Assembly: GCA_001780985.1 (NCBI GenBank)
Contig: MFJV01000001.1
Span: 428,049 to 492,048 of the forward strand
Source: Candidatus Gottesmanbacteria bacterium RIFCSPLOWO2_01_FULL_43_11b
Lineage (GTDB): Bacteria; Patescibacteriota; Microgenomatia; UBA10105; UBA927
Direction of reading: 5' to 3'
Length of the DNA: 64,000 bases
Shown here: piece by piece, positions 15,130 through 23,455 of the stretch
Layout of the letters: each line of letters starts with the position of its first letter
How positions within the stretch are numbered: the stretch's first letter is position 1
Made by a program: the position numbers and the translations under genes
The notes under the pieces: generated by a model
What the model was told of the DNA's origin: nothing
What the model saw: only the letters and a program-made list of their open reading frames with translations
Databases searched by the model: none

Positions 15130-15801
15130 TTAATTATATAATCCAGCAATCCATCCGTGTATTTTTCGAAGCAAATCAGTGCTTTTACTAACTCGAATTC
15201 GTAAAACACCGTGATAATTTTCTGGGTTATCGTATATTTTTTGCCATTTTACCTTCTGAAAAAAAGGTTTTTGAAATTGTTGGTCACTCACACGCAGTAT
15301 TTTTTGCCAATACTTTTGAATAGGTTGAACCTTATCTTTATATGTTTCGTTTAGCCCTAATCGAAATCGCAACCGATCAATGCTAATATTACAAGCCTCT
15401 TTTAACCAACGAACCATAAAACGGATCATATTGGGATCAGAATTGGAAAATCCCATCAGATTATCCTTCTTAAATCCCTCTGCCCAATATAAAGCAATAC
15501 CAGCAATAAATAATTCACGAGGCGTAAGTTCTGCCACTTCAATGATACCCCTTTGAAACAATTGTCTTATCTTGTCTTCTTTTAATTGTTTTTGCCTTTC
15601 AATATATACTTTTCTCTTGCCATAATAAGGATCGTGTGCGTTTTTTCCTAATACTTGGATTTGTTGAGGAGACAAAACAATATCTCGACACCATAGGCTT
15701 GCGGTGCTTGAAGAAACTCCAAGTTTTTTCGCAATGGTTTTAATTCCTAATCCGCTCTTGCGTAAATCGCGAGCTATTAGCCGAAGTTGAGATTTAGCCA
15801 T
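15130..15801 (-). CDS. HTH-domain DNA-binding protein of unknown function; LAGLIDADG-like resemblance is weak
   Basis: N-terminal HTH (IKTIAKKLGVSSSTASLWCRDI). Central FIAGIALYWAEGFKK. Sits next to the intron-containing tRNA. Confidence 0.45.
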   Translation of the reverse strand: MAKSQLRLIARDLRKSGLGIKTIAKKLGVSSSTASLWCRDIVLSPQQIQVLGKNAHDPYYGKRKVYIERQKQLKEDKIRQLFQRGIIEVAELTPRELFIAGIALYWAEGFKKDNLMGFSNSDPNMIRFMVRWLKEACNISIDRLRFRLGLNETYKDKVQPIQKYWQKILRVSDQQFQKPFFQKVKWQKIYDNPENYHGVLRIRVSKSTDLLRKIHGWIAGLYN

Positions 15802-15889: not shown

Positions 15890-16154
15890 CGCGGGGTAGT
15901 GTAAAGCAGCACAGAAGGCTCACAATATGGGCTCATCGAGAGGAAACTTTCGCGTGATAATTCGGCTATATCGGTGGAATCCCGCTTAGCGGGACAATAC
16001 CGAGGGAAGATCCGCCAGCGGAGGAAACCCGTAGAGACTACACGCCGAACCCCGCCCTACGCGAAGGGCGGGGATGATATAGTCCGACACTCCGAGCAAT
16101 CGGAGAAACAGTAAGCATAATCTTCTAGACCTGGTGCGACTCCAGGCCCCGCAA
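15890..16154 (+). tRNA. tRNA-Met(CAU), initiator-like, interrupted by a group I intron (exons 15890-15920 and 16116-16154; 70 nt mature, no encoded CCA)
   Basis: Acceptor stem CGCGGGG/CCCCGCA plus discriminator A is identical to E. coli tRNA-fMet, including C1xA72. D stem GTGT/GCAC; anticodon stem GAAGG/UCUUC; reconstituted loop CU|CAUAA; T arm CCUGG-UGCGACU-CCAGG. Atypical 6-nt D loop and G55. Confidence 0.55.
15921..16115 (+). ncRNA. Group I self-splicing intron in the tRNA anticodon loop (between U33 and C34)
   Basis: P7 strands GUAGAGACUACACG (16031-16044) and GAUAUAGUCCG (16075-16085). P3 UUCGGC/GCCGAA. Q-like GAUCCGCCAGCGG. P8 CCCCGCCC-uacgcgaa-GGGCGGGG. P9 CUCCGA-GCAA-UCGGAG. Terminal G at 16115; exon U at the 5' splice site. 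Confidence 0.6.
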
Positions 16155-17855
16155 CAAGGTAGGAATGGAGGCATATTTTGCCTCCATTTTTCTTATTCTG
16201 TCGCTCTCCTTATTAGGTGCGAACATTTCTCCGATAATAGGTGCCTCACTTTTCATCTTTTTGAGGGTAAACAAGTACGGCGGGCTGTCCAAACGCAATG
16301 TTCTATCGGTAAGCGTTAGGTGCGAACCTAAGTCCATGAGGATACGCCGCTTTAACTTCGCGTCTCCATTTGCAAATCGCTCCCGTACTTTGGTAGCGAA
16401 GGTAAACGCCTCGTTAATGTCCTCTGCCGCCTGCACCATGCGGTTGTCTATAGTACCCAACTGTTGCTCCAAGCCTTTTAGCTCGGTTTCAATGGCTGAT
16501 TTTTGGCTTCTGTACTGCTCATCGGAAAGCAGGCTTCCGTCAGTATTCTGCGGCGAGATTTTGAGCTGAATGAGGTTATTGAGCTTTGCCCTGCACGCAT
16601 CGTGTGCCCCTTTGATAGAAGCAACAGTATCCTCTTGGAAGTCTTTTTCCGACTCGTTCATGGCCGCTATCTGCCTCAGTGCCCAGTCCATAAAGACTGG
16701 TGAAATCTCTATTTCTGCCAGTTTTGCGTCTATCTGTTGTTCAAGCCTATCCAGCCTTACCCCTTTTTGATGACATAATCGACTTGTACGCCGTTTACAA
16801 CGGTAGTAGGTGTAGTGCAGGATGGTCGGGTTACGCATGTTCTCAATCTTCGTGTCGCATCGTGTGCAGGTGTCTTTATTCTTCTTGGTAATGGAAAACT
16901 TCCATTTGCACGCCGTACAAATCACCTGATGTTTTTCCTCAGCAGTGATGGTGGCACCGCAAAAACCGCATTTGAGAAGCGAAGTGAAGGCGTATTCATG
17001 GTGTTGCAGCGTGTATTTACCTCTCCTGCCGAGAAGTACCTGTACCTCGTTAAACAACTCCTCGCTTATGGCGGGTTCGTGGCTCCCTTTCCACCACACC
17101 CCGCTTTTTTCTGGATACTCAAACTTGCCGTAGTAGAAAGGGTTAGAGAGGATTTTATAGATCATACTCAACGACAAAGGCCCACCGCCAGAACGCCGCT
17201 TTTGTCTTGACCGATACCCCCATTCATTCTTTGCCATGAGGTAAAGCTCCATAACTGTTGTACCCTCACGAAACAACTCAAACATTTTTCTGATAAACGG
17301 AAGTCTTTCTGGATCTGGTAACACCTTCCGAAAGCCACTTTCTGTTTGTCTGTCATTAAAGTACCCTTGTGGTGCCACTCCTGGTCGCCATCCGTCACGA
17401 CACTTCTTTTCCAAACCTCGACTTACCACTTCGCTTTTGTCGTCGCTATCTTTCTTTGAGATTCCAAACTCAAGGCTAAGCATAAACTTATCCGTTGGAG
17501 TGTTATAAAATGAACGAGCTGGCGTCTTAACTTCAATCAACTTGCCTTCATCCATGAGGTAAATAACCCAACCAGCGTCAATAGGATTCCTTGCCAAACG
17601 ATTTGGGTGCCACACAATAATCGCATTTGCCTCTCCGCTTTCTATCCTTTTTAACATCGCCCCAAAAATTTCTCTCCCTGGTTTGTGAGCCGTTTTTGAC
17701 TCTTGAAGCACCTCAACGAGATGTAAATTTTCCTTAGTTTTTAATCTCTCAATCTCATATAACTGTTCGGGGAGCGACGCCGCCTGTCGCTCTTTGTTGT
17801 CCTCGGAGCTTTTTCTAGCGTAGCCAATGTATTTGAGAGAAATATTAGTATCCAT
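16125..17855 (-). CDS. Large serine recombinase (resolvase-domain integrase with recombinase, zinc-ribbon and coiled-coil regions)
   Basis: YARKSSEDNKERQAASLPEQ catalytic region with Ser; CxxC pairs. Start taken at MDTNISLKYIGYARKSS; the ORF track extends to 17885. C-terminal codons overlap the tRNA 3' exon and attL. Confidence 0.85.
   Translation of the reverse strand: MDTNISLKYIGYARKSSEDNKERQAASLPEQLYEIERLKTKENLHLVEVLQESKTAHKPGREIFGAMLKRIESGEANAIIVWHPNRLARNPIDAGWVIYLMDEGKLIEVKTPARSFYNTPTDKFMLSLEFGISKKDSDDKSEVVSRGLEKKCRDGWRPGVAPQGYFNDRQTESGFRKVLPDPERLPFIRKMFELFREGTTVMELYLMAKNEWGYRSRQKRRSGGGPLSLSMIYKILSNPFYYGKFEYPEKSGVWWKGSHEPAISEELFNEVQVLLGRRGKYTLQHHEYAFTSLLKCGFCGATITAEEKHQVICTACKWKFSITKKNKDTCTRCDTKIENMRNPTILHYTYYRCKRRTSRLCHQKGVRLDRLEQQIDAKLAEIEISPVFMDWALRQIAAMNESEKDFQEDTVASIKGAHDACRAKLNNLIQLKISPQNTDGSLLSDEQYRSQKSAIETELKGLEQQLGTIDNRMVQAAEDINEAFTFATKVRERFANGDAKLKRRILMDLGSHLTLTDRTLRLDSPPYLFTLKKMKSEAPIIGEMFAPNKESDRIRKMEAKYASIPTLLRGLESHQV
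16144..16156. repeat. attL core direct repeat (tRNA positions 63-73 plus 2 nt)
   Basis: AGGCCCCGCAACA, identical to 22371-22383. Confidence 0.6.
16167..16192 (+). terminator. Intrinsic terminator 13 nt after the tRNA 3' end
   Basis: Stem GGAGGCA/UGCCUCC, loop UAUUU, then AUUUUUCUU. Lies antisense within the last codons of the recombinase gene. Confidence 0.5.
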
Positions 17856-17867
17856 AATCACAATTAA

Positions 17868-17911
17868 GGGCAACGGTGGACACAACCTTTTGACGGGTTG
17901 AACCGTTGCCC
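17868..17911. promoter_or_regulatory. Perfect 10-bp inverted repeat in the recombinase 5' leader
   Basis: GGGCAACGGT-24 nt-ACCGTTGCCC, 13 nt upstream of the recombinase ATG. Confidence 0.3.
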
Positions 17912-18135
17912 ATAAAAGAACCCGTCGTATTCAGCTGTGTCCATATTTATCGTATCCTCTCTACTTCCTTCTGTCAAGCAATTTTGGTACACGATTGCCA
18001 TACACGAATTTTACGAGATCAATGAGCTTCGTGCCATAATCAATAGCCTGTTCTCGGCTTATTATTACGCCATATTCTTTCTGGTAGATCAGTTGAAATT
18101 CGTTGATGGCTTTTTCGCTTAATTGCATAGTCAAT

Positions 18136-18324
18136 TTAAGATTTATCCTCCACTGCGAGAAGCTCCGCTAAATACTCCTCCAGAAGCCCCTTAATGGTTG
18201 TAGAAGACTTTGCAGCTTTCACCTTGAGGAGTTGATGCAGGCTGGCGTCTATACGGACTTGTTTTGTCGTTTTTTTGTCACTTTGTCGACTTTGCATATT
18301 CTTTTCTCCCTCTTCTCTCTCCAT
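18136..18324 (-). CDS. Ribbon-helix-helix (CopG/Arc-like) DNA-binding protein
   Basis: 62 aa; VRIDASLHQLLKVKAAKSSTTIKGLLEEYL. Confidence 0.5.
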   Translation of the reverse strand: MEREEGEKNMQSRQSDKKTTKQVRIDASLHQLLKVKAAKSSTTIKGLLEEYLAELLAVEDKS

Positions 18325-18410
18325 AAACCTCTTTCTTCGTTCTAGGTAAGTACTTCACCAGAGCATTGAAGGTTTTGTAAACGGCGCAGAGGACTTGATA
18401 TAATCTCACT

Positions 18411-18616
18411 TCATGTTGCCGTTCCTTCTTGCGATCTTCATCGGGACGGGAAACCGCTTGTTTCGCCCTCAGATCGTCGCTCTTGCGGTAGGTCGCGTTT
18501 GCTCTACGCTACTCTATCCCGTTAGGCATCAAAAATGCCTTACTCGTTTCTCTTCTGGGGGCACCAGGAGAGAAACCAATAAGGCATCTCAACTCCTGTG
18601 TGCCCCCATTTTTTTC
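18411..18616 (+). ncRNA. Candidate ~200-nt sRNA inside the element
   Basis: TTGTAA-18-TATAAT (18375-18404) upstream. Ends at a strong terminator: GGGGGCAC...GUGCCCCC (18557-18607) plus T7. The overlapping 122-aa ORF has no RBS and reads through the terminator. Confidence 0.25.
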
Positions 18617-18619
18617 CAC

Positions 18620-18651
18620 AAAAAAACCGACGAAGAGAGAATCTTCGTCGG
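18620..18651 (-). terminator. Intrinsic terminator for the XRE gene transcript, back-to-back with the plus-strand terminator
   Basis: Minus-strand stem CCGACGAAGA/UCUUCGUCGG followed by U7. Confidence 0.5.
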
Positions 18652-18783
18652 CAAATCTAATAATTTACCCTATTGTGAGTGTAGACCAAAAAAAATATTT
18701 GTCAAGAGGGATTTTATTGTCAGAACAATCTATATTATGGTATTCACAACAGTATTATTTTTACTTTTGCCTTCGGTTTGAAT

Positions 18784-19026
18784 CTAAAATGGGAGAATTT
18801 GAGAGGATTTTATGTGAAGCGAACGGCAAATTGCATAAATCTTTTCAAGTGTTGGTCGCGCCATTCCGTTTTCAATTTTACTGAAATAGGAGGGTTCAAT
18901 CCCTGCTTCAACTGCAACGTCAAGTGATTTTCTCTTTTGAGCCTTCCTCAAGCGTTTTACATTGACACCAATTGCCTTGAGCATTTGTCGCGACAGTCGG
19001 TACGCCATATGGCAAGATTGTCGCAA
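18784..19026 (-). CDS. XRE-family (Cro/CI-type) HTH transcriptional regulator
   Basis: LRKAQKRKSLDVAVEAGIEPSYFSKIENGMARPTLEKIYAICRSL. Confidence 0.7.
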   Translation of the reverse strand: MRQSCHMAYRLSRQMLKAIGVNVKRLRKAQKRKSLDVAVEAGIEPSYFSKIENGMARPTLEKIYAICRSLHIKSSQILPF

Positions 19027-19119
19027 AAGTTGTTCTATTAAACTTGTGATTTACAACCATTTTGAAGCTATGTTTGAGCTTGATTATTTTTCCAATTTGA
19101 TGTAGGTTCATGGAAGGAT

Positions 19120-19761
19120 ATGGCCGAAGATCAGAGAGATCCAATTGTTGTAATGCAACGGTATAAAACTCCAACAGCAATTATTATTTTCCTTATTTTG
19201 GGAATTTGGCTTTTTGCTAGAATAATTCAATACTCTTTTCAAGCGAGAGGTGCAACAGAGAAAAAAGCTACAAACAACAATACTTTTTTACCCATGCCGT
19301 CTTCCACAATCATGCCTTCAACCACCTCAATGGGGGAAGTTACTATCGAGCCAGAAAAAACGATTACAACAAGGAGAATTGTCAAAGGTAGTACTCCAAA
19401 AGGAATTGAGTTCTATGAAAAAGTTGATACATTACGGAAACAGGGGAGGGTTAACGGAGAACTTTGCACAGAATTCGAGTCTGATGCGATCGTTGATGTG
19501 AACCCAAAGATGCAATCGGTCCAGATGAGCCTGATGTATCCCTCAATTATCGAAAATGTTGACGATTCAGACAAAGCACTTATATTGAATGACTTTAATG
19601 TGATAAAAGCTCTAGCAGAGCAAGATCCGAGCCTTATTCTTTCGGATTACGGGACATTGCGATTGTTCGTATTAACCTTCCACGACAGCTCATGTATAGC
19701 TAAAGGAGAATTACAGAAAATGATGATTGATGCAGAGCCTCAATGGATTGATTGGAAGTAG
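19120..19761 (+). CDS. Hypothetical membrane-anchored protein (element cargo)
   Basis: N-terminal TM, Ser/Thr-rich linker, globular C-terminal domain; no motif recognised. Confidence 0.4.
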   Translation: MAEDQRDPIVVMQRYKTPTAIIIFLILGIWLFARIIQYSFQARGATEKKATNNNTFLPMPSSTIMPSTTSMGEVTIEPEKTITTRRIVKGSTPKGIEFYEKVDTLRKQGRVNGELCTEFESDAIVDVNPKMQSVQMSLMYPSIIENVDDSDKALILNDFNVIKALAEQDPSLILSDYGTLRLFVLTFHDSSCIAKGELQKMMIDAEPQWIDWK

Positions 19762-19949
19762 GAGGTACGATGTTTCTCTTCAAGAAAAAATGTCCTCGCT
19801 GTGATAGCACAAATATAAATAGAGTTAACCCTAGTCTATGGAGAAAATTTATGGACTTACAATATCAAGCATTAACTTGGGGCATCAGGAAGCCTTCTAA
19901 AGCACTCAACGTATGTCGCGATTGCGGATTCTCATGGGAAGATAGATAA
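19752..19949 (+). CDS. Small zinc-ribbon protein (element cargo)
   Basis: CPRC...CRDC. Overlaps the upstream gene by 10 nt. Confidence 0.4.
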   Translation: MEVGGTMFLFKKKCPRCDSTNINRVNPSLWRKFMDLQYQALTWGIRKPSKALNVCRDCGFSWEDR

Positions 19950-20339
19950 AGAATTTTGAGATTGTACCCCATGTTTTTGAGGCGCCCTCCGTACCATTCT
20001 CTGGTTACTCTTACAGAGTTTAAAAACCAGGGGGAATGGTAACCGAAAAGCTCATGTTTTTCTTTTATCCTATTACTTAAATCACACTATGTTTCGTGAA
20101 TAGATTCATAGACGTCAAGTATTTTTCAGCGAAATAACCGCTTGAAAGCGAGCTGCTCTGGTCAAAATGCCTCCTTTTGAGAGCAAAGGATACAAATAAG
20201 ACCTCATGTCAAATCTATAGTCAAGTCTTTTTTGGAGCATTCTATGACAAGTCATCGTCCTTACATAAAAAGTTAAAGACCTGTAGAAATTTCTAAATCA
20301 GAAGAATTATTGAAGCTCAAGTAAGTCTTTCGTGTTTTT

Positions 20340-21626
20340 CTAAGGATCATACTCAAACATTTCAAAAAAAGGGCTTCCCCAGTCCTCACCGTAAATCTCT
20401 TTGACTTTCTCCAAATGTTTTTTTGAAGCGCTTCGTTCTATTTTGTCCAAGTAGTTCAAAAAAACATTGATGTCTAGCTGTGAGAAGAACTGAGTATGTA
20501 ACCCCAAGCGTGTTTTGACGGGTTCCTCTTTCAGATATGTGTGGCATTCCTTATCGACAAACATCGCGTCACAATACGGGGCAAGCGAAGCGATTGTTTT
20601 AACGTCGTTTACAAAACCTCGTGTCGGTGGCTTTTTCTTCCCTGAAGCAGCTTTTCTTGCCACCGCTGCAAATAACATTGCAGAAATACGACCATATGAC
20701 ACCTCTTTTATATCTTCTGATTTGAAGTACTCCGTAGTTTTTAGTAATAATTGGTCTTCAGGTGTGCCTTTTTCTTTTAACTCATCTTGGATCTCCGATA
20801 CCAACGTGACCGTCGATGAAGGCAATAACCAATCTAACCTTGCGTTTGGATCTCCCATAGCAGCACTGTAGTGTCGCTGGAGACTTTGAAGATATGATTT
20901 GAGTATCATAATTCCAAACTGACCAACCTCTTCTTCGTACCAGTCATTGAAAACCTTACCTTTTTCTGACTGCCACCGTTTGAATACTGTTTGCATATAC
21001 GAATCTATCTGATCACGATCGCTTCGTATTCGCTCTGGTAGATCTTTATCTTGGCCAAACATATCTACTGAAATTCGTATTCTATCCTGCCAACCATCAA
21101 TGTCATCTCCATGCAAAACCGAATATAAATCTATCTCTTGAGTTTTTTTACCTAACCACTTCCTAAAATTCACAATAATTTGAAATCTTTTGATTGTTTC
21201 TTCGTCGTAAAACGACACACCATTTGAAAGGTGTTCATACATCCGACGAAGAAGTTGGTAGTGAGGCGTTACCAAGGACTCGTGTAGATGTGTAGTAGAG
21301 TCTGGACATATGATTAGTTGCAGTTTTACTAATCGATCAAGTTTAGCGAAAACCTCTTTCCACACACCTTTGACTCTTACTCTCCTTGTGATCTCTGTGG
21401 TAGGATGGAGGAGTTTCATCATCTCGCTAATGACCATTTGGTCTAGATAAATGACTTTTTTCTTGAGTTTGGGTAGCGAATACGATTCCGTATGCCAACA
21501 AGCTCGACACCTACGCGTATAACTAAAACTATGAATTGATATTACTCCATAGTCGGGTTTTTTACATTTTGGACATTCTACGTAGGGTGGGCTAATAAAT
21601 ATTCTTGGATCTATTGTAATTCTCAT
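20340..21626 (-). CDS. Hypothetical protein with N-terminal zinc ribbon (element cargo)
   Basis: CPKC...CRAC near the N-terminus, remainder unassignable. Start taken at MRITIDP, preceded by GAGGGAAGG; the track start at 21701 would overlap the divergent gene. Confidence 0.5.
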   Translation of the reverse strand: MRITIDPRIFISPPYVECPKCKKPDYGVISIHSFSYTRRCRACWHTESYSLPKLKKKVIYLDQMVISEMMKLLHPTTEITRRVRVKGVWKEVFAKLDRLVKLQLIICPDSTTHLHESLVTPHYQLLRRMYEHLSNGVSFYDEETIKRFQIIVNFRKWLGKKTQEIDLYSVLHGDDIDGWQDRIRISVDMFGQDKDLPERIRSDRDQIDSYMQTVFKRWQSEKGKVFNDWYEEEVGQFGIMILKSYLQSLQRHYSAAMGDPNARLDWLLPSSTVTLVSEIQDELKEKGTPEDQLLLKTTEYFKSEDIKEVSYGRISAMLFAAVARKAASGKKKPPTRGFVNDVKTIASLAPYCDAMFVDKECHTYLKEEPVKTRLGLHTQFFSQLDINVFLNYLDKIERSASKKHLEKVKEIYGEDWGSPFFEMFEYDP

Positions 21627-21690
21627 TCCTTCCCTCTGTTTGTTCTCATGGCAGTCATTATATACCCAATGGTGATATAATTTAGCAAGT

Positions 21691-22302
21691 ATGGAAACCA
21701 CGCCTAGCGGAAATTTTTTCCTTCAATATGGTAGCTTAATCGGAACGATTATTGCGTCCATTACTGCATTGGGAATAGCAATATGGGGTAGATGGTTAAG
21801 AAGTTTACCGTTCAGACCAGAATTGAAGATTGTTGACCTGATAAGCCGAAATCAAACGCCAAGTCTTAATCTTTGGAGATTAGTCATCAAAAACATCGGA
21901 AACGATACGGCAAAAAATGTACAAGTAGATATCATAGAGGTTGTCGACGATGGTAAAAAATTAAGGAAAAATTTCCTTCCGCTTCCCTTACGCTGGACGC
22001 ATTTAGATAAAGAGTGTCGAGATATCCTTCCTGATCAGACGGTCTATCTCGATCTTTTTGAACATATTAACCGAGGGCCGTTGGGGAACATGCAGCATTT
22101 CGTTCGTTTTGGGACAAGATACGCACAAGAGATTCAACATTTTTGCTTCTTAAATCCTGGGAAATCCAAGGTAAAAATCAAGTTATTCCAAGAAAATGGA
22201 GTATCCTTTGAAACAACTGTAGACACGGATTGGGACGGAACACTCTTGTTTGACGCTAAGCGGAAAGGTGGCAATTGGCTTTGGAGGAATAAGAACGAGT
22301 AG
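21691..22302 (+). CDS. Hypothetical membrane protein (element cargo)
   Basis: N-terminal TM. TATAAT (21676-21681) ends 9 nt before the ATG, suggesting a near-leaderless transcript. Confidence 0.4.
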   Translation: METTPSGNFFLQYGSLIGTIIASITALGIAIWGRWLRSLPFRPELKIVDLISRNQTPSLNLWRLVIKNIGNDTAKNVQVDIIEVVDDGKKLRKNFLPLPLRWTHLDKECRDILPDQTVYLDLFEHINRGPLGNMQHFVRFGTRYAQEIQHFCFLNPGKSKVKIKLFQENGVSFETTVDTDWDGTLLFDAKRKGGNWLWRNKNE

Positions 22303-22370
22303 ACATCTAAGTCACGAGCCCAAATGAGGCGGTTCTGTCAGGCGAGAGGAAATAGGTTCTGATTTCTTGG

Positions 22371-22383
22371 AGGCCCCGCAACA
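22371..22383. repeat. attR core direct repeat
   Basis: AGGCCCCGCAACA, identical to 16144-16156. A 13-mer match is unlikely by chance in 64 kb. Confidence 0.6.
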
Positions 22384-22423
22384 CATTCGACTCGCATCGC
22401 CCACTCAGTGCGAGCCAATACAC

Positions 22424-22452
22424 AAAAAAGCGACCACGAGGGTCGCTTTTTT
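22424..22452. terminator. Bidirectional intrinsic terminator
   Basis: A6-GCGACC-acgag-GGTCGC-T6. Terminates the minus-strand RRM gene and plus-strand element transcripts. Confidence 0.6.
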
Positions 22453-22923: not shown

Positions 22924-22995
22924 GTCAGGGTAGCTCAGTGGTAGAGCACCAGTATCATAAACTGGTCGTCGAGAGTTCGATCCTCTCCCCTGACA
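22924..22995 (+). tRNA. tRNA-Met(CAU), elongator-type (G1-C72); could also be tRNA-Ile2 (lysidine). Intron-less.
   Basis: Manual fold: acceptor GTCAGGG/CCCTGAC; D arm GCTC-AGTGGTA-GAGC; anticodon arm CCAGT-ATCATAA-ACTGG; T arm GAGAG-TTCGATC-CTCTC; discriminator A. Confidence 0.85.
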
Positions 22996-23089
22996 CAAGA
23001 GTTTTGTTTTGAGGCCGCCACGCGGCCGAAATCCCGCCACGCGGGACGATCCATGCCGCTGGCACTTCGTTTACTCAGTGCAAGCACTT

Positions 23090-23455
23090 TTAGAAAAACA
23101 ACTTCCACCACTTCTTCCAATTTGGCAATTCTTCTGGTTTTTCCGTTTCTTGTTTACTATTTTCTAACATCGGTACCAACACAATCGCTTCCCCCTCTTT
23201 AATTAGTCCTAAATCCTCCCGTGCGGATTTCTCAATAAATTCAGGACTTTGCGCCTGATTCAGTTTCTTTTTGAGCTCCTCCTGTTTCTTCTCAAGATCC
23301 AGTAATACTTCTCTTCTTTCATTTACGATGTCTCTTTTTTGCCACAGTGAGTACATACTCCGAATAACGCCGACTATCACAAAAATGCTAACGAGCGTTC
23401 CGACCAATCGGAAGAGTCGACTTTTGAAAAATTTTACGATCTTGTATCCCATCAT
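23090..23455 (-). CDS. Septum formation initiator (FtsB/DivIC-like)
   Basis: N-terminal TM followed by a coiled coil (EVLLDLEKKQEELKKKLNQAQ). Confidence 0.55.
   Translation of the reverse strand: MMGYKIVKFFKSRLFRLVGTLVSIFVIVGVIRSMYSLWQKRDIVNERREVLLDLEKKQEELKKKLNQAQSPEFIEKSAREDLGLIKEGEAIVLVPMLENSKQETEKPEELPNWKKWWKLFF

Follow-up and report, generated by a model that had tools for sequence, protein, structure and literature searches.

Temperate phages encode superinfection-exclusion membrane proteins such as Sie2009, Ltp and SieA, and the exclusion proteins of temperate phages are often small, membrane-anchored and encoded beside the repressor. Small integrative elements with defence-type cargo are also an already known kind. 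The element described here lies in a stretch of 64,000 nucleotides from Candidatus Gottesmanbacteria bacterium RIFCSPLOWO2_01_FULL_43_11b, a member of the Candidate Phyla Radiation (CPR). The whole of this stretch (assembly GCA_001780985.1, contig MFJV01000001.1, positions 428,049 to 492,048 of the forward strand) is referred to as the window, and positions are those of the window unless a contig is named. An earlier note had singled out four genes of the element, here called A to D, as a candidate accessory or defence module. The main subject of the present work is gene C, which encodes a 428-aa protein with an N-terminal zinc ribbon. Payne et al. (2024, bioRxiv 10.1101/2024.01.29.577857) have described HEC-09 as having a weak IF2B/5 N-terminus and a PIN-like domain, and their supplement gives HEC-09 as a 206-aa Pfam NYN protein.

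The best overall explanation, held here with half confidence, is that the integrative element carries the four genes as three units and that gene C encodes a nuclease with a role in defence. Gene C would occupy a variable cargo slot behind the A-B pair, and its product would be a stand-alone protein combining the zinc ribbon with a metal-dependent nuclease that has a PIN-like Asp/Glu/Asp/Asp centre. The protein would stay inactive in the absence of a phage or foreign element and, once triggered by one, would cut nucleic acid, leading to defence or abortive infection. The A-B pair would have an exclusion or element life-cycle function, and gene D would be a separately acquired, leaderless, membrane-anchored gene passed around between the mobile elements of CPR bacteria, with a possible role in exclusion or immunity. 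The element borders, gene structure, family sizes, genomic contexts and conserved residues given below are observations; the nuclease chemistry and the defence roles are inferred.

Borders of the integrative element

The four genes are part of a 6.2-kb integrative element at about 16157-22383, as follows from the evidence of the tRNA, the direct repeat, the conserved right arm and the recombinase. The location inside a mobile element, given in the earlier note, was therefore confirmed and is now delimited by the recombinase, the repeat and the tRNA site. The genes occupy the right-hand part of a serine-recombinase element, which is inserted into the 3' end of a tRNA-Met gene that has an intron. 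In this tRNA-Met(CAT) gene (15890-16155, plus strand) the anticodon loop is interrupted by a group I intron at about 15921-16115. The intron gives an Rfam RF00028 match at 15911-16106 on the plus strand (62.4 bits, where the gathering score is 50), and ARAGORN recognises tRNA-Met(CAT) at 15890-16155 only with the intron of about 195 nt taken out. A metagenome contig (L104) holds the identical tRNA-Met without the intron and with no insertion behind it. The attL core AGGCCCCGCAACA (16144-16156) is an exact 13-nt direct repeat consisting of the last 12 nt of the tRNA and one base, and its exact copy, the attR core (22371-22383), lies 69 nt past gene D. The attR core is preceded by the conserved arm of the element; about 45 nt of this element-side right arm together with the core are about 80% conserved in a sibling element, L103. 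A 13-mer repeat within 8 kb is by itself nothing unusual; the attL copy coincides exactly with the 3' end of the tRNA and abuts the recombinase gene.

The gene of the large serine recombinase (16125-17885, minus strand; likely start ATG 17855) encodes the Pfam domains Resolvase, Recombinase and Zn_ribbon_recom, and the recombinase of a second sibling element, L101, is 51% identical to it. Since its reading frame spans attL into the tRNA DNA (16125-16160), the C-terminal codons differ between the integrated and the circular form. The integrated form ends in ...LLRGLESHQV (586 aa counted from the TTG start), and in the predicted excised circle the protein would end in ...LLRGLQEIRTYFLSPDRTASFGLVT (601 aa). 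The predicted circular junction is TTCTTGGAGGCCCCGCAACAAGGTAGGA and the predicted empty site is CTCCAGGCCCCGCAACACATTCGA. The three-domain recombinase at one end, the direct repeats and the uninserted tRNA of contig L104 are those of a large-serine-recombinase element.

Four genes in three transcription units

All four open reading frames (ORFs) were found at the coordinates of the earlier note, and the conserved homologues that each has elsewhere show them to be real genes. They are carried by three transcription units on alternating strands and are read here as three independent units (the A-B pair, C and D). The absence of recognisable domains was confirmed, as searches of Pfam, PADLOC, PHROGs and NCBIfam gave nothing significant beyond weak or chance-level zinc-ribbon matches. 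The two membrane proteins were also recognised as such, with one strongly hydrophobic N-terminal stretch in gene A (residues 18-36) and in gene D (15-33); no strongly hydrophobic segment was found in genes B and C. The scan with PADLOC-DB v2.0.0, proposed as a check for a defence module, gave no system match for genes A, C and D and only a chance-level zinc-ribbon match for gene B.

Gene A (19120-19761, plus strand) encodes a membrane-anchored protein of 213 aa with a linker rich in Ser, Thr and Pro and, at the C-terminus, a highly conserved alpha+beta domain of about 130 aa. It has 14 homologues, every one from Patescibacteria-type contigs. The linker is variable in the family, and the C-terminal domain is very conserved and contains two nearly invariant cysteines. 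In the AlphaFold2 (AF2) model this alpha+beta domain has a predicted local distance difference test score (pLDDT) of 86-95. Profile searches of PDB and Pfam gave no match for gene A, and the best Foldseek match in PDB, the CamS lipoprotein domain, was rejected as not significant (E=0.024). The domain is predicted to be extracytoplasmic by the linker and the cysteines and by how charges are distributed in the homologues with two helices.

Gene B (19770-19949, plus strand) is coupled to gene A and encodes a 59-aa zinc-ribbon protein (CPRC...CRDC) within a longer ORF that opens at 19752. The earlier note gave this protein 65 aa and its gene a 10-nt overlap with gene A. The tight coupling holds, and the length and the overlap probably do not: the likely start is ATG 19770, because the homologues begin MFFFKKKCPKC. 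This start lies 8 nt past the stop of gene A with GGAGG ahead of it at 19762-19766, and there is probably no overlap.

The A-B pair recurs in sibling elements. In L101, gene A is divergent from an XRE gene, beyond which lie a gene for a 585-aa protein, an orf57 homologue and the 51%-identical recombinase. In L102, gene A is divergent from a 55%-identical XRE gene, which adjoins a D5_N primase gene. A gene B homologue stands directly downstream of gene A in both (40% identity in L101, 61% in L102). In L103 it is found 729 nt downstream of gene A (55% identity), past a 216-aa ORF, and the adjacency of XRE and gene A is not seen. The content behind the pair varies. The slot that corresponds to that of gene C in the window holds an Mrr-type restriction (Mrr_cat) protein in L101, which matches the PADLOC type IV restriction and PDC-S02 models, and a SIR2 protein in L102, which matches the PADLOC SIR2 model. 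Because the sibling elements keep the pair while the genes behind it are swapped, genes A and B are best read as element backbone and not as cargo. The view of all four genes as cargo is thus upheld for C and D and given up for A and B.

Distribution of the gene C family

Gene C (20340-21626, minus strand) starts at an ATG within a longer GTG ORF, and its protein, with the cysteine pairs CPKC (C18/C21) and CRAC (C40/C43), is 100% identical to the hypothetical protein A3A79_02495. A word-indexed search gave 539 homologues from very different phyla, typically with 43-50% identity over 99% of the length. At E<=1e-3 the family has 1,827 representatives of 50%-identity clusters, 687 of them at E<=1e-30. 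A species scan showed the gene, as a single copy per genome, in at least 117 GTDB species; these belong to more than 20 phyla, including Patescibacteria, Planctomycetota, Firmicutes, Acidobacteriota, Verrucomicrobiota, Gemmatimonadota, Cyanobacteria, Atribacterota, Nitrospirota and Proteobacteria. Bacillus sp. 1P10SD and Cohnella sp. SGD-V74 are Firmicutes isolates that carry it, the Bacillus homologue lying within 198789-220063 of NZ_CP154847.1. Homologues are also present on four IMG/VR contigs, in one case (24% identity) beside terminase and lysis-like genes, in a prophage, and on the conjugative Rhizobium leguminosarum plasmid pRL10, near transfer genes; the protein of pRL10 is QIJ44775.1. 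Judged from these occurrences, the family is large, horizontally mobile and without annotation.

Predicted structure and conserved residues of gene C

The AF2 model of the gene C protein has a pLDDT of 92.4 and a predicted TM-score (pTM) of 0.89. It consists of an N-terminal four-strand zinc ribbon followed by an alpha/beta core with strands near residues 57-61, 105-109, 137-139, 171-173, 354-356 and 379-381, and the core is interrupted between about 195 and 327 by a region made up of helices only. Conservation was assessed in an alignment of 251 sequences that extends to the most distant ones and to the 24%-identical phage homologue. Residues kept in at least 97% of them are C40, C43, L51, Y60, D62, Q63, S67, P108, S110, E116, W179, D341, D358, L393, Y412 and G413, and those kept in 90-97% include C18, C21, H113, S117 and D353. 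Among the acidic positions, D62 stands where strand 1 ends, E116 belongs to the helix that follows strand 2, D341 stands where a helix begins and D358 lies just past a later strand. According to the alignment and the predicted strands and helices, this fits the layout of acidic residues of the PIN-like superfamily. The motifs IYLDQ..IS and ND..I.S....CDA.F.D.E likewise resemble those of PIN-like metal-dependent nucleases. Motif and topology of the model together suggest that gene C encodes a nuclease of this kind.

Other assignments were considered and rejected. A resemblance to the HEPN motif (R398-x5-H404) was discarded, as the Arg is not conserved. A transposase or insertion sequence was discarded on the single copy per genome and on a predicted core that does not have the initial three-stranded sheet of the RNase H fold. 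HEC-09 was discarded as a relative, since the NYN protein of the supplement is unrelated in sequence.

Genomic context of gene C

When the neighbours of gene C, four to either side, were clustered over 86 loci, no conserved partner emerged; the gene usually stands alone. A conserved adjacent small antitoxin gene (VapBC-like) was not found across these loci, and the commonest neighbour family was that of serine recombinases (8 loci). The neighbourhood comparison proposed in the earlier note revealed mobile and defence genes for part of the family and mostly housekeeping genes for its distant half. Among 148 neighbours of closer homologues there are ResIII genes (5) and several methyltransferase or restriction genes of types I, IIG and III, together with PLD-helicase, resolvase, phage portal and scaffold genes. 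A Planctomycetes locus has ParE and RloB/AAA_21 nearby, and a Peptococcaceae locus has a type III restriction-modification (R-M) system and an HD protein. The homologue of Bacillus sp. 1P10SD is flanked by a resolvase, a protein with CapR homology and HNH, and an integrase fragment. In two loci, L004 (7351-9293) and L105 (1910-3852), the gene C homologue begins inside an upstream HEPN_AbiU2 gene. The homologue in L105 is the closest of all (73% identity), and a type IIG R-M gene lies directly upstream. AbiU2 and the gene C homologue may together make up a two-gene form of the system. In a survey of HEPN proteins, Anantharaman et al. (2013, PMC3710099) have listed other partners of AbiU2, the gene C family not being among them.

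Gene D

Gene D (21691-22302, plus strand) encodes a protein of 203 aa that has a transmembrane helix near its N-terminus, basic residues behind the helix and a conserved domain at the C-terminus. The position of the basic residues points to a cytoplasmic location of this domain. The near-leaderless start of the gene was confirmed, with an extended -10 box (TGaTATAAT) whose TATAAT part (21676-21681, plus strand) lies 9 nt ahead of the ATG. Eight homologues were obtained, all in CPR mobile elements, including a tyrosine-integrase element in a Levybacteria genome (L013) and a type IV secretion element, where the gene is beside an XRE gene (L016). A -10 box (TATAAT or TAAAAT) is found 8-9 nt before the ATG in both L013 (7987-8003) and L016 (7986-8003). 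Because this spacing is kept, the leaderless arrangement is conserved, and the gene D transcript is probably leaderless. Profile searches of PDB and Pfam gave no match for gene D.

Gene C as a proposed defence nuclease and the alternatives

Of the mechanisms considered for gene C, a metal-dependent nuclease guided by its zinc ribbon, which would serve alone as a defence or abortive-infection effector, has the best support. A defence role of gene C is plausible because it shares its slot with restriction and SIR2 genes, because homologues are linked to AbiU2 and R-M systems, because its distribution across phyla is patchy, and because its set of acidic residues is near-invariant. It may tentatively be proposed, at less than even chances, that gene C founds a widespread and so far unrecognised family of single-protein immune nucleases with a zinc ribbon and a DEDD core with helical insert, which has no Foldseek-detectable PDB counterpart and is moved among more than 20 bacterial phyla on integrative elements, prophages and plasmids. 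Several results weigh against the explanation of gene C as a PIN-like defence nuclease on a functional element. A search of 47 gene C members against Pfam at E<=10 yielded zinc ribbons only and no PIN family, hidden Markov model searches of PDB sequences were negative, and PADLOC gave no match. The AlphaFold and Foldseek check provided the confident model, and comparison with PDB and BFVD matched only the zinc ribbon (gene A gave no significant fold match). The gene C core was aligned by hhalign with three Pfam-confirmed PIN proteins from the loci examined, a PIN set too small for a fair test, and this alignment and one with an NYN protein gave a probability below 1%. A core-only profile with the ribbon and insert removed also retrieved nothing from PDB sequences. 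Because every homology test run was negative, gene C is not filed here as a member of the PIN family. As to context, among 102 neighbours of distant homologues the recognisable families were mostly housekeeping; recombinases, Mutator transposases and LexA-like proteins were few, and there was one C5 methylase. In these uncontrolled counts, part of the family therefore has a real signal of defence islands, and the signal is moderate overall. The defence role suggested in the earlier note is thus plausible by context for gene C, and most neighbours in the distant half of its family are housekeeping genes. As to the element, neither the exact empty site nor a circular junction of the same species was found in the metagenome search, and the element does not have the replication gene of its siblings and may be a decaying remnant.

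The main rival, in itself unlikely, takes gene C for a nuclease or toxin of a selfish or competitive kind (for homing, addiction or as an inter-element weapon) that gives the host no protection from phage. The gene is a single gene between housekeeping genes in many genomes, lies between terminase-like and portal genes in prophage contigs, and is often beside recombinases or transposases with no cognate antitoxin. However, it is present as a single copy per genome, and flanking repeats or disruption of target genes were not noticed. Its operon fusion with the abortive-infection gene HEPN_AbiU2, its position next to R-M systems and its place in a slot filled by defence genes in the sibling elements also weigh against this rival.

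It is less likely still that protection is given by the membrane proteins A (with B) or D as superinfection or entry exclusion factors, gene C having no part in immunity. Neither protein has homology to any known exclusion protein, and both families are tiny, confined to CPR and absent from IMG/VR viral contigs. They are, on the other side, small membrane-anchored proteins encoded beside XRE-type regulators in several mobile elements, which fits the general picture of phage exclusion proteins encoded beside the repressor.

It is improbable that gene C encodes a non-catalytic zinc-ribbon protein for nucleic-acid binding or regulation, in which the acidic residues bind a ligand or a structural metal. 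The protein has no detectable similarity to any nuclease, and conservation extends to its large helical region, with W218 and E233. Nevertheless, the near-invariant D, E, D and D stand at strand ends and helix starts as in metal-dependent nucleases, and a patchy, horizontally transferred distribution would be odd for a regulator with no partner.

A single accessory or defence module, in which all four genes would cooperate and a zinc-ribbon effector would work with membrane partners, is highly improbable and largely refuted. The genes are adjacent within one element and encode two membrane proteins and two zinc ribbons, but they are in three transcription units on alternating strands. A, B and D homologues are absent from about 90 loci with a gene C homologue, which leaves the supposed pairing of a zinc-ribbon protein with membrane partners without comparative support. 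Genes C and D do not co-occur with A or B elsewhere, and the A-B loci and the D loci do not have C.

Other features of the element and its surroundings

Three further genes on the minus strand lie between the recombinase gene and gene A. The first encodes a 57-aa backbone protein (17961-18134), of which a 47% identical homologue adjoins the recombinase in L101. The second encodes a ribbon-helix-helix (RHH; Arc/Omega-like) protein (18136-18324) with weak Pfam and PHROG RHH matches and a 52% identical homologue in the tyrosine-integrase element L013. The third encodes an XRE/Cro-type helix-turn-helix (HTH) regulator (18784-19026; Pfam HTH_3, 1.4e-8), which is divergent from gene A and has its 55% identical homologue at the same position in L102. 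A non-coding gap of 459 bp (18325-18783) separates the RHH and XRE genes, at a place where the siblings have the gene for the 585-aa protein or the D5_N primase. A remnant of the replication gene of the siblings was looked for in this gap and not detected; the element of the window may have lost its replication module. The ORF list, Pfam and PHROGs revealed no primase or packaging gene in the element, and it is not a phage satellite by this measure. The intergenic region 19950-20339 has no Rfam match and ordinary folding (z = -0.84).

An ORF of 223 aa (15130-15801, minus strand) sits just upstream of the intron-bearing tRNA and is a candidate free-standing homing endonuclease. It has an N-terminal HTH, and the suspicion raised by its LAGLIDADG-like 'IAGIALYWAEGFK' was not supported by Pfam or PDB sequence searches. 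A second tRNA-Met gene, uninterrupted, is located at 22924-22996. The motif CTCAGTGC(A/G)AGC occurs at 22403-22428, at 23073-23098 and in contig L104, about 30-75 nt downstream of tRNA-Met genes. In one Patescibacteria genome, a gene A homologue (L011, 7378-9339) is situated just downstream of ftsA-ftsZ, and in a second the tyrosine-integrase element with the gene D homologue (L013, 3096-12087) likewise stands just downstream of ftsA-ftsZ. The site downstream of ftsA-ftsZ may be an insertion hot spot.

Significance

If gene C does encode a defence nuclease, its family would add a new single-gene system to the bacterial immune repertoire. The family ranges from CPR to Bacillus and Rhizobium and has been missed by Pfam, NCBIfam, PHROGs and PADLOC. 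The carriers in culture (Bacillus sp. 1P10SD, Cohnella sp. SGD-V74 and R. leguminosarum with pRL10) make the hypothesis testable. As a large and confidently modelled family in cultivable bacteria, it is a valuable lead among the many such candidates that exist with an inferred function. The element also shows that small serine-recombinase elements which integrate at tRNA genes occur in CPR bacteria and have a defence slot with exchangeable content, much like the satellite hotspots of model bacteria; a CPR serine-recombinase element at an intron-bearing tRNA-Met is a modest addition. If gene C is not a defence gene, the locus is an ordinary integrative element with orphan cargo.

Comparison with known systems

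PIN-like nucleases (VapC, NYN/MARF1-type) have, like gene C, an alpha/beta core with Asp/Glu/Asp/Asp in comparable positions. The acidic motifs of gene C are IYLDQ..IS at the end of strand 1, ND..I.S at a helix start and F.D.E past a later strand. Gene C differs from PIN and NYN proteins in having no significant sequence, profile or Foldseek similarity to them. It differs from VapC in being three times its size, with a helical insert of about 135 residues and no antitoxin partner. Its likeness to HEC-09 consists in a zinc ribbon that gives a weak match to the zinc ribbon of IF2B/IF5. The lactococcal AbiU-type abortive infection systems (HEPN_AbiU2, PF18734) are linked to the family through the two gene C homologues that are translationally coupled to AbiU2. 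The gene C of the window has no AbiU2 partner, as is the case in about 97% of the loci examined, and no HEPN motif.

The proteins of genes A and D resemble Sie2009, Ltp and SieA in being small, anchored at the N-terminus and encoded beside the regulatory switch of a mobile element. They have no homology to these proteins, and the domain of gene D is predicted to be cytoplasmic. The element as a whole may be compared with P4-like and PICI-like (phage-inducible chromosomal island) hotspots and tRNA-integrating islands. It differs from these in its large serine recombinase in place of a tyrosine integrase, in its CPR host, in having no genes for capsid or packaging interference and no replication gene, and in a backbone with the A-B pair. 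It shares with them integration at the 3' end of a tRNA gene, a short direct repeat, an XRE switch, a primase in one sibling element (L102, the only sibling with D5_N) and a slot that holds restriction, SIR2 or uncharacterised genes.

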